This document shows, in pieces, positions 11,259-29,081 of a stretch of DNA of 64,000 nt. Numbering within the stretch: the first letter of the stretch is position 1; each line of letters begins with the position of its first letter. Where the stretch lies: the sequence record PZ445454.1. One strand, given 5' to 3'. Made by a program: the position numbers and the translations under genes. The stretch comes from a phage. Under the pieces are notes generated by a model that saw only the letters and a list, made by a program, of their open reading frames with translations, searched no databases and had not been told where the DNA came from.

Positions 11259-19274
<8,016 letters not shown>

Positions 19275-25740: not shown

Positions 25741-26100
25741 TTATGGGAACAAGCACTTAATGTCATCGTTTTTGAAAACAAAACTTGTGTAGTTATGACC
25801 ATCAACATCCAGCCAAACAGCCTGAACATCCACACCATCAAGATTTTGGTAAAGCTCTTTGATGAAGTGGTCTTTTACAATCTGACTGCTAGTTGTTTCC
25901 AACTTAATGTTCGAGATTGCTGAACCTACAGCCATATAGCCCATGACACGTTTCTTCTCAGTATGCTTAATCTTACCATCTTTGTAAGCCATAATGAGAT
26001 TGGAAAGAATCTTTACACCATAATACTTTTCAAGGTGAGTAGGTACACCATAAAAGCCTAATGCGAAGTTTTCAGAGTGGATAATGTTTTCACGTTTCAT
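25741..26100 (-). CDS. hypothetical protein
   Basis: 119-aa ORF. Confidence 0.45.
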   Translation of the reverse strand: MKRENIIHSENFALGFYGVPTHLEKYYGVKILSNLIMAYKDGKIKHTEKKRVMGYMAVGSAISNIKLETTSSQIVKDHFIKELYQNLDGVDVQAVWLDVDGHNYTSFVFKNDDIKCLFP

Positions 26101-26101
26101 A

Positions 26102-26401
26102 TTAATCTGCCAACCTTAAATTGAAATTAACACCAAATTTTTCACATACTTCCAACATATACTCAAGGGAGACGTTACCAGTGAGATGGATTATGTTGGA
26201 TACACGAGCCTGAGAGATACCACAAATTTTAGCAACTTGCTCTTGAGAAAGACCTCTTGATTTAATCTCTCTCTTAAAACGATGTGCAACAAAGTCTCTC
26301 ATTTCGTCTACATCCATTGGACAAATATAACTCTCCATTTCAGCCTCTCTATCAGCCTCCCAATCATCTTGTGGGGCATAAGGGTCAAAAACCTCATTCA
26401 T
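26102..26401 (-). CDS. helix-turn-helix DNA-binding protein (putative transcriptional regulator)
   Basis: LSQEQVAKICGISQARVSNI HTH motif; start chosen at internal ATG (MNEVFD) with RBS GGAAGAAGAAAG; track ORF extends to 26431. Confidence 0.5.
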   Translation of the reverse strand: MNEVFDPYAPQDDWEADREAEMESYICPMDVDEMRDFVAHRFKREIKSRGLSQEQVAKICGISQARVSNIIHLTGNVSLEYMLEVCEKFGVNFNLRLAD

Positions 26402-26606
26402 CTTTCTTCTTCCGTTTGCGTGAAGTATCAATCAATGAATCTATATTTGTAGCCCTAACCTTTTCACGTTCATCATTAAGATAATCATCAAGAGCCTTTT
26501 CAATCTGTGAATCATCTTGACAAATGACTGTAAAGACTGTAAAGCCGTCTGTATCATCAATTATCTTACCATAACCGCTTCTGGGATGTAACTTTTTAAG
26601 AGCCAT
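26394..26606 (-). CDS. hypothetical small protein with basic C-terminus
   Basis: 70 aa; ends RKRKKKDE. Confidence 0.4.
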   Translation of the reverse strand: MALKKLHPRSGYGKIIDDTDGFTVFTVICQDDSQIEKALDDYLNDEREKVRATNIDSLIDTSRKRKKKDE

Positions 26607-26607
26607 A

Positions 26608-26991
26608 TCAAATACCTGTGCAGCTTCTGTTTTCTAAGAAATACTCAACACCATACATAGCTTTTTGCATCAAATCTTCTTTAAACTGGATACGATGATT
26701 GAGCATAACCTGTACATCAATATCATCATGGTGTTTCTCTTTAATATTTGCAGATTGCAGGAAATACTCTGCAAGAACGCGATACTGGTAGTCAGTCACC
26801 TTATCAGTCATCTCTGTCAAAGACTCTTCAGAGATTGGTTTAAGTAACTCACCTTTAGATAGCGCAACACCTTTAACAATCTGGCAAGTGTCTTCTGGAA
26901 CACCTGATAAGTCCACATTTGGAAGTTCTGTTGCATTAACTGGTAAATTCATTGCCATAACCATTGCAGCAGCTAATAAAACCTTTTTCAT
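26608..26991 (-). CDS. predicted secreted/periplasmic protein
   Basis: 127 aa; N-terminal signal peptide MKKVLLAAAMVMAMNLPVNA. Confidence 0.5.
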   Translation of the reverse strand: MKKVLLAAAMVMAMNLPVNATELPNVDLSGVPEDTCQIVKGVALSKGELLKPISEESLTEMTDKVTDYQYRVLAEYFLQSANIKEKHHDDIDVQVMLNHRIQFKEDLMQKAMYGVEYFLENRSCTGI

Positions 26992-27110
26992 AATGACCTC
27001 AAAGTTATATTAAATTTTGTATTACATTGAGTATAAAAATAAGCTATAACACCTGACTTGTCAACAGATTTTATAGCTTATTTGGCAGATTTTTTATAAG
27101 GCTACTGCCA

Positions 27111-27204
27111 TCCTTCCATACCTTACCTTACCACACCTAACCATACCTAACCATACCTAACCATACCTAACCATACCTAACCAAACTACACCATACAATA
27201 CCTT
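27111..27204. repeat. tandem 10-bp repeat array (CCATACCTAA, 4 perfect copies plus about 5 degenerate)
   Basis: read directly: tccttccata ccttacctta ccacacctaa (ccatacctaa)x4 ccaaactaca ccatacaata. Confidence 0.85.
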
Positions 27205-27270
27205 GTTAAAAGACCCTCTTAAAAGACCTTTTAAAAAGGTAAGTCTCATTTTAATGTAGTTGAGACTAAC

Positions 27271-27330
27271 TACCCATACCAAACAGCACCGCACTATGCC
27301 TTACCCCACCTCACCGAGCCTCGCCCCACA
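27271..27330. repeat. C/A-rich low-G tract (plus strand) in otherwise AT-rich genome
   Basis: tacccataccaaacagcaccgcactatgccttaccccacctcaccgagcctcgccccaca. Confidence 0.6.
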
Positions 27331-27410
27331 TCACTTAAAAACCCTTTTCAAAGACTCTTAAGTGATGCTGGTGAGTACCCGTTGGTTTATGCTGCTCAGT
27401 ATACTCACCA
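27329..27410. promoter_or_regulatory. pair of inverted repeats (10-bp catcacttaa/ttaagtgatg; 9-bp tggtgagta/tactcacca)
   Basis: read directly; arms separated by about 19 and 24 nt. Confidence 0.6.
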
Positions 27411-27431
27411 AATTTTCTATGTCAACAACTT

Positions 27432-27578
27432 TTATATAAAAGTCCTGATAGCTATATGTGTTACAAAACAGAAGATTGTGAACAAGACACCCATTGCAAA
27501 GGATGTGTTCAAAAGTTTACTTGTTATGTAAGACAACACAAAGATAACTAATGCAAATAGTATGATTATGCTTAGCAT
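27432..27578 (-). CDS. possible 48-aa hydrophobic peptide downstream of ligase
   Basis: ATG 3 nt after ligase stop; translation MLSIIILFALVIFVLSYITSKLL...; no clear RBS, below ORF-track size cutoff. Confidence 0.25.
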   Translation of the reverse strand: MLSIIILFALVIFVLSYITSKLLNTSFAMGVLFTIFCFVTHIAIRTFI

Positions 27579-27581
27579 AGT

Positions 27582-28685
27582 TTACTCATAATCCCTAATA
27601 ACTAGTCCGACAGGGAACTGTAAAGAACCCTTACGAGTCATCTTCTGGAACTGAACCGTTAAAGGCTTCCCGATAAACTCATCAGGATGCTCAGCAAGAT
27701 ACTGTTTCTTCTCATGAGTAGTCTTCCATGAGACATCTACAAAGACGTTAGGAAGAGTCTCTACAACGAACTTACCATGACCACGTTTATCGGTCTTTAC
27801 ACCAGTCACTTTAAACTCTTCAGTGTGCATCTTCTTGTGCTTAATCAAGAAGTATGAACGGTGACCACACTCATAGAAGGAGTCTTCAGAGATTGAACGG
27901 TACATTGCACCTTCAAACTTGGCTTCAACCCACTTATCATGAGCTTCATCAAACTCTTCCCAAGAATTTACACGACGAGATTTAACAGGGACAACTTTAC
28001 AGCCATCTCTAAAGTCATTCAATGGTGAAGTCTCAATAATATCTCTACGCTCAGGCCACGTTTTAGTACTGTCACAGATATCATACCAGTAGAACTTAAG
28101 TAAGTGTCTGTCAGGATTGTCTTCATTTTTAATCATGGAGACAATATCTTCTAAGTCCCACCCATGAGCATAAATCTCTCCATCAAATTCATCAACATCT
28201 TTGTGGAGCCTTAACATTGCCATAATGTCAGGTATTAGTTCAGTAGGGATTTTGTAAACAGTATTCTCACGAGAATATGCTGTAAATACACTGCCAATAC
28301 TTAAGTGTCTTGAAATTCTACAACGTACACCATCAAGTTTTGGTTGAGCATCAGCAGGGAACTTCAGATACTTTGCATGACTAACCTTTGCAGCGTCATG
28401 AGCAAGCTGTACACCTACCTTTTCAGTATTCTGTGCAGACTCTTTTGTGTAAGCATAACCTTTACGGTCAACTTGCTTTTTATACTTAGCAGCAACTTCA
28501 AAGAGAGCTTGCTGTTCAGCGTTACGCTCATTCTTTTTACCGATGTTTTTCGGTTCTGCTGTATACTCTTCAAACATCATCTTGCCATTTTCTTTACCGT
28601 AGGTTGTAATAACTTTGTCACCTACAGCAACGCATGACCAGACGTTAAAAGAGCCATCTTTATTTTGTTTGTACAGAATTGTCAT
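27582..28685 (-). CDS. lig: ATP-dependent DNA ligase
   Basis: adenylation motif I KLDGVRC (KxDG); start chosen at MTILYK with RBS AGAGGT; track ORF extends to 28721. Confidence 0.7.
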   Translation of the reverse strand: MTILYKQNKDGSFNVWSCVAVGDKVITTYGKENGKMMFEEYTAEPKNIGKKNERNAEQQALFEVAAKYKKQVDRKGYAYTKESAQNTEKVGVQLAHDAAKVSHAKYLKFPADAQPKLDGVRCRISRHLSIGSVFTAYSRENTVYKIPTELIPDIMAMLRLHKDVDEFDGEIYAHGWDLEDIVSMIKNEDNPDRHLLKFYWYDICDSTKTWPERRDIIETSPLNDFRDGCKVVPVKSRRVNSWEEFDEAHDKWVEAKFEGAMYRSISEDSFYECGHRSYFLIKHKKMHTEEFKVTGVKTDKRGHGKFVVETLPNVFVDVSWKTTHEKKQYLAEHPDEFIGKPLTVQFQKMTRKGSLQFPVGLVIRDYE

Positions 28686-28878
28686 TTTTAACCTCTGAGT
28701 GATACCAAGTGTAACAAGCATTACATGCGTAAAGCTCTAAGTCATTTTTATCTGGTTTATGGAAACAGTTTGACCCACAACGACACCGGAATAGTTTACC
28801 ATCAACACGAAGAATGAATGTTTCAAGCTCACCATCTTCTGTAAGAACTGCGTTCTTAAGTTTATCTTCTACAGTCAT
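28660..28878 (-). CDS. small zinc-ribbon protein
   Basis: 72 aa; CRCGSNC ... CNAC. Confidence 0.45.
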   Translation of the reverse strand: MTVEDKLKNAVLTEDGELETFILRVDGKLFRCRCGSNCFHKPDKNDLELYACNACYTWYHSEVKNDNSVQTK

Positions 28879-29081
28879 TTTCTCTTACCACCAATCTCTA
28901 CGTCAATCACTTGAACATCACCAGCAACATCAAACTTATGAATGATGCTTTCCACAGTGTAAGTCCAACCCTCGATTCGAACCAACTCACCTTCTCGTGG
29001 GACGATTGGGTTACGTTGAGCTACGGTTGTAGTGGAGTGAACAACATCATAACAGTAGATATAGTTTACTAGGACTTCCAT
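28875..29081 (-). CDS. hypothetical small protein
   Basis: start set at internal Met (MEVLVNY) preceded by GAGG; track ORF extends to 29180. Confidence 0.4.
   Translation of the reverse strand: MEVLVNYIYCYDVVHSTTTVAQRNPIVPREGELVRIEGWTYTVESIIHKFDVAGDVQVIDVEIGGKRK

Follow-up and report, generated by a model that had tools for sequence, protein, structure and literature searches.

The locus studied here lies in PZ445454.1, a Felix O1-like myovirus (Felixounavirus), and was analysed within a 64,000-nucleotide stretch of that record, referred to below as the window. Positions 26000-29000 were matched by 259 phage records at 80-99% identity. The gap at 26992-27581 sits within a run of minus-strand genes for replication and nucleotide metabolism, with ligase, polymerase and DHFR around it, and is bounded by a DNA ligase gene and a 127-aa ORF (Table 1). 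Across relatives the length of this gap ranged from 273 to 2132 nt. Annotations of relatives divide the ligase into two CDSs of ~72 aa and 379 aa that overlap by 62 nt. Both ORFs were also found in the window (28660-28878 and 27582-28721, minus strand), and either a programmed frameshift or a true gene split could account for the arrangement.

Table 1. Features of the gap and its two neighbours in PZ445454.1; promoters are predicted, and RNA modules carry the names of the reading preferred in the text.
Feature	Position	Strand	Remarks
DNA ligase	27582-28721	-	One gap neighbour
Small hydrophobic ORF, 48 aa (MLSIIILFALVIFVLSYITSKLL...)	27432..27578	-	ATG start; directly after ligase stop; outside the VIPR element
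Promoter P1, TTGACA-16-TATACT	27398..27425	-	Best sigma-70 match (11/12) of the 12-kb block
Lead-in hairpin H1	27329..27367	-	Perfect 10-bp arms; directly upstream of tract A
vrRNA-A guide, 11 YNNGG repeats	27274..27328	-	Period-5 score 8/10, unit parse; the former 'G-free tract'
vrRNA-A 3' tail, type a	27233..27273	-	Pseudoknot S1 GTAG/CTAC, S2 AGTCTCA/TGAGACT, then U-tract
Lead-in 2 (AAAAGGTCTTTTAAGAGGGTCTTTTAA...)	27206..27232	-	Holds the taaaagacc direct repeats; site of the putative deletion junction
vrRNA-B guide, 18 YNNGG repeats	27116..27205	-	Period-5 score 10/10, TRF, unit parse; the former '10-mer array'
vrRNA-B 3' tail, type c	27084..27115	-	Pseudoknot S1 AAGG/CCTT, S2 GGCAG/CTGCC
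Promoter P2, TTGACA-17-TATTTT	27036..27083 (element); 27064-27036 (promoter)	-	10/12 sigma-70 match
127-aa ORF	26608-26991	-	Other gap neighbour

A preliminary description of the gap had listed an array of 10-bp tandem repeats, a nearly G-free tract, two inverted repeats and a set of direct repeats, and we found all four in place. Tandem repeats finder (TRF) reported a period of 10 at 27120-27196 with 7.7 copies and a score of 110, the highest in the window; four perfect copies of CCATACCTAA occupy 27141-27180 and three copies with one mismatch lie nearby. On the plus strand the G-poor tract contained 6 G in 60 nt (27271-27330), and the array contained none in 94 nt (27111-27204). Both inverted repeats were perfect (27329-27338/27358-27367 and 27369-27377/27402-27410), and the taaaagacc direct repeats (family D2) were confirmed. 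When the window was searched for CCATACCTAA, eight matches were obtained compared with 3.2 +/- 1.9 in shuffled sequences, and none of 100 shuffles reached eight. The repeat sequence was hypervariable in relatives.

The 10-bp period itself had to be corrected. The true period was 5, and the period of 10 was private to PZ445454.1. When GG was scored at a period of 5 on the minus strand, two tracts gave values of 10/10 and 8/10, while nothing else on the minus strand exceeded 5, the plus strand reached at most 4, and shuffled sequences at most 6. Because the scores peaked at both, the array and the G-poor tract could be recognized as two copies of one kind of element, which, read on the minus strand in the direction of the genes, consists of tandem pentamers made of GGY and two further nucleotides, with GG(T) recurring every 5 nt. 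To define this grammar we cut the gap into modules in a comparison set of 23 IMG/VR and 3 GenBank loci. The profile over 928 units from these 26 loci was G.88, G.99 and T.82 (with C.10), followed by two free positions. Arrays were mostly 10-14 units long, with a mode of 12. The repeat sequence varied between phages whose flanks were 97-100% identical, GGY alone being conserved. Within the 64-kb window the period-5 pattern occurred at one locus only, and the same was true of the pattern and its flanking motifs in a complete relative genome of 87.6 kb. Recombination cassettes resembling the PeSL of T4 were ruled out on this ground, since motifs confined to one locus of a complete genome are not dispersed.

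The flanks of the two tracts were also organized. The gap can be read as P1, H1, 11 repeats, tail a, a second lead-in, 18 repeats, tail c and P2, an order adopted because the locus of the relative SUSP1 has these modules. P1 has a predicted start near 27391, would drive the first RNA, is 97.6-100% identical across all 26 relatives, and is identical to the promoter upstream of the experimentally expressed SUSP1 vrRNA1. The H1 module, whose stem reaches ~18 bp in the RNA fold, also precedes SUSP1 vrRNA1 and vrRNA4. In lead-in 2 an 11-bp hairpin was predicted in RNA, which provides the second unit with a 5' hairpin analogous to H1. Tail a (GTAGTTAGTCTCA...TGAGACT) is the same as the tails of SUSP1 vrRNA2 and vrRNA3, and tail c (AAGGATGGCAGTAGCCTT...CTGCC), which directly precedes P2, is identical to that of SUSP1 vrRNA4. 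Four tail types were found in the clade; their sequences differ while the topology, an H-type pseudoknot, is one. In a hand-padded alignment 99.3% of the cells in this pseudoknot were paired and 9 of the 11 pairs had changed on both sides, compared with 31-42% pairing when the 3' partners were slid. In the fold of the predicted P1 transcript (z = -3.9), a long hairpin at the 5' end is followed by repeats that are largely unpaired and then by the tail hairpin. Neither Rfam (release 15, gathering threshold) nor ARAGORN returned a match in the window. From these sequence features, P1 would transcribe two serial vrRNA genes in PZ445454.1.

P1 and P2 gave the highest sigma-70 scores in the 12-kb block, and both are inside the gap, oriented with the genes. 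P2 would serve the downstream 127-aa gene and its operon, and adjoins the repeat element without being part of it; the 119-nt region around P2 had 97.5-100% identity throughout the relatives. The P2 -35 is flanked on both sides by a 19-nt inverted repeat (AAATAAGCTATAA...TTATAGCTTATTT, 27037-27055/27065-27083), a possible operator that might be bound by the HTH regulator whose gene lies three genes downstream (26102-26401). At P1, one arm of the 9-bp inverted repeat TGGTGAGTA/TACTCACCA (27369-27410) overlaps the -10 and the other covers about +15 to +25 of the transcript. This repeat was invariant among relatives and seems to be a DNA-level site, because its upstream arm falls mostly outside the RNA.

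The gap had also been called a non-coding island, which is apt for the repeat tracts, read here as non-coding RNA genes, and not for the part next to the ligase gene. The stretch 27578-27432 is an ATG-initiated ORF with two hydrophobic segments, which was intact with conservative substitutions in nine loci and is annotated as a CDS in UAB_Phi87, and for these reasons about 150 nt of the island are probably coding. The ORF was present in 9 of 27 relatives and absent in about 12; SUSP1 and four others carry an unrelated insert of ~174 nt instead. It is probably an optional small membrane-protein gene beside the repeat locus. Elsewhere in the complete genome of UAB_Phi87 (locus L027), a stretch of ~1.6 kb at 14632-16246, nearly gene-free in the annotation, lies between divergent blocks and possibly corresponds to DNA outside the window; it may be a better candidate for an origin or early promoter than the gap studied here.

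The identity of the element emerged from the relatives in which the gap is longer. In the phages tootiki and Andreotti a two-gene cassette was found inside the gap with arrays on either side, and 17 of 27 relatives carried ORFs of 195 and 146 aa (vipr and vap) there. The 195-aa protein of tootiki matched PDB 36pp, 'SUSP1 Vipr protein', with E = 8e-128, as well as phrog_4652 (function unknown); Pfam had no model for Vipr or vap. The association extended beyond Felix O1-like phages. An exact scan of IMG/VR for (GGTNN)7GGT returned at least 120 stretches. High-entropy arrays of the Felix type were found in at least 64 IMG/VR loci (64 among the 120 matches listed), often many in tandem, and simple satellites made up about a third of the matches listed. 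Among these matches, at least two arrays were present in 41 non-Felix loci, and 33 of these encoded a same-strand homologue of the 195-aa protein, 175-215 aa in length. The Vipr-family gene usually ended 2-75 nt before the first array, and in most of the remaining loci the arrays lay at the end of the contig. The tootiki protein belongs to this array-associated family, with BLASTP E values down to 4e-31.

Two preprints of 2026 describe the VIPR system, which consists of Vipr, a protein of ~20 kDa with a minimal RAMP fold, an accessory vap gene and vrRNAs, each vrRNA being made of 9-16 YNNGG repeats and an invariant pseudoknot tail (bioRxiv 10.64898/2026.04.26.720920, 10.64898/2026.04.26.720927). 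Each repeat is bound by one Vipr protomer, with GGY buried and NN presented (bioRxiv 10.64898/2026.04.26.720927). In SUSP1 the resulting Vipr filament recognizes double-stranded DNA, skipping one base for each dinucleotide read, and silences a competing mobile element at the level of transcription; one vrRNA is encoded upstream and three downstream of vipr-vap, and small-RNA sequencing detected them as RNAs of ~100 nt (bioRxiv 10.64898/2026.04.26.720920, 10.64898/2026.04.26.720927). VIPR has been proposed as a forerunner of CRISPR. The tracts in PZ445454.1 agree with this definition in both parts. Guide A has 11 units, and guide B has 18 (12 ancestral and 6 duplicated), which is above the published 9-16; tails a and c are SUSP1 tails, with the pseudoknot supported by covariation. 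Hence we conclude, with a probability of about 0.9, that the gap is a type II (SUSP1-clade) VIPR locus in which two vrRNA genes were kept and the protein genes were lost. Of the options offered in the preliminary description, an array that binds protein and a structured non-coding RNA both point to the right answer, the tracts being read as vrRNA genes whose repeats each bind one Vipr protomer, while a replication origin is not supported. It had also proposed the HTH protein at 26102..26401 as a binding partner, a place that belongs to Vipr, which has no gene in the window.

Two further observations were made on the unrelated IMG/VR contigs. Genes of the phrog_15946 family (155-170 aa, unknown function) directly adjoined arrays in six unrelated loci (L046 11014-11511, L140 2322-2819, L129 3853-4365, L087 4419-4928, L050 7855-8337 and L127 7214-7681), and this family is a candidate for an accessory, vap-like gene. 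In addition, very large vrRNA-like tracts were seen at L087 3233-4394, L041 2217-3406, L138 2609-12927 and L092 7674-8257. They comprise 18 and 13 tandem arrays, 14 tracts over 10 kb on one contig (up to 79 units) and one tract of 42 units, sizes far above the 9-16 units given for single vrRNAs; some of them may be the 'staggered' arrays of the VIPR paper.

We then examined the absence of the protein genes. In the window, which covers 64 kb of the ~87-kb genome, tblastn gave no match to vipr (best E = 3.3), and a profile of 30 diverse Vipr proteins gave none at E <= 10, while the SUSP1 control was recovered at 7e-47. A homologue of vap1 (tootiki_15, phrog_5926) was likewise absent from the 64-kb window by tblastn. 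In related phage records vipr was found at one place per record, always at this locus. About 118 Ounavirinae records had vipr compared with 259 that had the locus, so that some 141 of 259 (~54%) were without it. Loci with vipr (n=17) held 4.3 vrRNAs each, and those without (n=10) held 1.7. When records were sorted by organism name, vipr was present in ~77 of 119 named for Escherichia and in ~17 of 77 named for Salmonella, with a vrRNA-bearing gap in all; a vipr-less orphan locus may be the usual state in Felix O1-like phages of Salmonella.

Alignment to tootiki indicated how the cassette may have been lost. In tootiki lead-in 2 is duplicated, with one copy on each side of the vipr-vap cassette, and the breakpoint was placed within this ~35-nt direct repeat because the window aligns to tootiki on both its sides. 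From this comparison we infer that the cassette was lost rather than gained in PZ445454.1. Recombination between the two ~35-nt lead-in copies would remove a vrRNA, vipr, vap1 and the terminator and would leave two orphan vrRNA genes, and replication slippage would then have added three extra 10-nt blocks to guide B, producing the perfect 10-mers. The guide sequences are consistent with such a course. The NN dinucleotides of guide A are GG GA TC GA GG AA AT GC GC TT AT, and this guide is identical in tootiki and Andreotti, both vipr-positive. Guide B corresponds to the 12-unit guide of tootiki and of the loci L017 and L026, to which three (TA, AT) unit pairs were added through threefold duplication of a 10-nt block, and with 18 units it was the longest array among 90 vrRNAs in 27 loci. 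The best match of any sequenced phage to this gap was 91%, and none shares it. Taken together, the expansion of guide B and the lack of a match in sequenced phages mark the perfect 10-mers as a private slippage event in the guide.

Before the link with Vipr was made, several other identities had been considered for the repeats, namely a binding site for a TRAP-like ring protein, a run of RNA polymerase elemental-pause consensus sites (G-10 Y-1 G+1), DNA prone to G-quadruplexes or R-loops as an origin like those of T4 or ColE1, an antisense 60-nt Rho rut site, an rrn BoxA-like lead-in and BREX GGTAAG decoys; all were superseded by that link. Two readings without a guide RNA deserve to be weighed. 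A replication origin, in which the 10-bp repeats would be iterons bound by an initiator and the asymmetric tract would be an unwinding or R-loop zone primed from P1, draws on the fact that the locus is unique in the genome and sits among replication genes, and that a strong promoter transcribes into a G-rich non-template strand. We consider it very improbable, because the repeats keep GGY only and are otherwise hypervariable in near-identical phages despite flanks of ~100% identity, because their period is 5 in all relatives and not one helical turn, because their pattern is strand-specific, and because the same modules in SUSP1 are ~100-nt RNAs bound by Vipr. In unrelated phages, moreover, the arrays go with a Vipr gene and not with replication genes; no initiator gene was associated with the repeats, the associated gene in relatives being vipr. 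Our search for literature on a Felix O1 origin or transcriptome found nothing relevant. The preliminary description had named lack of conservation and variable copy number among relatives as signs against a functional array, and the repeat sequence does behave in this way, but the variation reads as that of a programmable guide and not of junk.

Hardly credible, in our judgement, is a plain regulatory spacer, with a terminator, promoters P1 and P2, hairpins and a neutral microsatellite. The presence of the two best promoter matches of the block, the terminator-like hairpin with its U-tract at 27233-27270 and the resemblance of the four perfect 10-mers to slippage products would all fit it. From a neutral satellite one would expect neither GGY held at ~0.9 beside two free neighbours across 90 arrays, nor conserved boundaries with a mode of 12 units, nor a recurrence beside the Vipr homologues of unrelated phages. 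The preliminary description, too, had judged a promoter role insufficient for this much structure.

Given a VIPR locus with its protein genes lost, the functional state of the orphan RNAs in PZ445454.1 can be inferred in part: with no Vipr in cis they would act only on Vipr supplied by a co-infecting vipr-positive relative, and would otherwise be recent remnants. It is quite possible, at somewhat less than even odds, that the two vrRNA genes are inert leftovers of a recently deleted VIPR that are too young to have decayed, with the 10-mer expansion of guide B as the first sign of decay. Besides the absence of vipr and vap from the window, this agrees with guide B, which is of low complexity, has expanded by slippage beyond the 9-16 range and is the longest of the 90, with the smaller number of vrRNAs in vipr-less loci, in some of which the tracts are degenerate (L006 and L019), and with the fact that both guides are common to vipr-positive phages, as expected after a recent loss. 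Several results weigh on the other side. Repeat integrity was equal with and without vipr (0.83 and 0.81, p = 0.49), from which it follows that the orphan vrRNAs are young or else maintained; each of the 10 vipr-less loci still had one or more vrRNA modules with the tail intact; P1 is fully conserved; and a state shared by about half of the related records is not rare.

A bolder proposal, which we regard as unlikely, is that vipr-less Felix O1-like phages keep orphan vrRNAs on purpose. When a relative or satellite co-infects the cell, their guides would be loaded onto its near-identical Vipr, either to turn its silencing on targets of their own or, as decoys and an RNA form of 'anti-VIPR', to titrate the Vipr of a rival. 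Vipr identity within the clade is 92-100%, with nearly all values at 95% or above, and the tails are common to these loci. If true, such use in trans would amount to a layer of guide-RNA parasitism that is invisible to protein-centred surveys.

Possible targets of the two guides were searched by the 1-nt-skip rule, for which the published criterion is an NN match of at least 80%; of 20 SUSP1-clade guides for which a natural target could be identified, 18 are directed at a satellite phage (bioRxiv 10.64898/2026.04.26.720920, 10.64898/2026.04.26.720927). No self-target was found at three or fewer mismatches, and the exact 1-nt-skip patterns of guides A and B had no match in IMG/VR or GTDB genomes. 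A pattern from a 9-unit core gave 26 matches, which is about chance level, with none in enterobacteria. When the satellite of the SUSP1 type, which encodes WP_096972663/4, was sought by blastn of the window's baseplate-hub gene and the gap against 5,426 E. coli genomes, no match was obtained; homologues of the hub protein at 78-83% identity belonged to complete Ounavirinae phages.

The kind of element found here is already described in the 2026 preprints, and what seems new is the orphan, vipr-less state, which appears to be common. The published census of VIPR began from the Vipr protein, and its text is silent on vipr-less phage vrRNA loci, the nearest statement being that some satellites encode their own vrRNAs (bioRxiv 10.64898/2026.04.26.720920, 10.64898/2026.04.26.720927). 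Since that census started from the protein, guide loci without it went uncounted. VIPR has only recently been added to the modes of RNA-guided DNA recognition, and the frequency of the orphan state together with the intactness of the guides raises the question of whether vrRNAs are used in trans at co-infection, as borrowed weapons or as decoys. The locus also illustrates a route of cassette loss, by recombination between lead-in repeats. In addition, it supplies an annotation signature, period-5 GGY on one strand followed by a pseudoknot tail, for regions that are now labelled 'repeat_region' or left blank in Felixounavirus genomes.

The closest known counterpart is the type II VIPR of SUSP1 (vrRNA1-4, vipr and vap1), which occupies the same site between the DNA ligase gene and the 127-aa gene. 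The two loci share P1, H1, the GGTCTTTTAAYAA lead-in (placed before vrRNA2 and vrRNA3 in SUSP1), the YNNGG grammar and tails a and c. Compared with SUSP1, the window is without vipr, vap1 and the vrRNA with tail b, and has two vrRNAs in place of four; its guides differ in their NN positions, and one has reached 18 units through tandem duplication of 10 nt.

Likenesses to other systems were more formal. Iterons are 17-22 bp long and conserved in sequence, and an origin of this type combines them with a cognate initiator and a neighbouring AT-rich element for unwinding. With iteron origins such as lambda ori and P1 oriR, and with the R-loop origins of T4, the gap has in common a unique tandem-repeat locus near replication genes and a promoter directed into an asymmetric tract, but its repeats conserve only 3 of 5 nt and differ in sequence among near-identical phages. 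The TRAP sites of Bacillus trp leaders consist of (G/U)AG triplets repeated 11 times with spacers of 2-3 nt, one protein subunit binding each repeat. The vrRNA tracts resemble them in having a conserved triplet and a free 2-nt spacer some 11-12 times over; this is an analogy only, since TRAP and Vipr have unrelated folds, Vipr assembles into a filament and not a ring, and the vrRNA spacers carry information.

Orphan CRISPR arrays without cas genes exist. VIPR departs from CRISPR in having no spacer-repeat units and no adaptation genes, in a specificity that is non-contiguous (2 of every 5 nt), in reading its target with a 1-nt skip and no PAM, and in being encoded by a virulent phage. On the other hand, the crRNAs of Class 1 CRISPR and vrRNAs are alike as programmable guides in which a variable part is capped by an invariant structured handle, and in both Class 1 CRISPR, with its Cas7-family RAMP filaments, and VIPR, a protein of the RAMP fold oligomerises along the guide.
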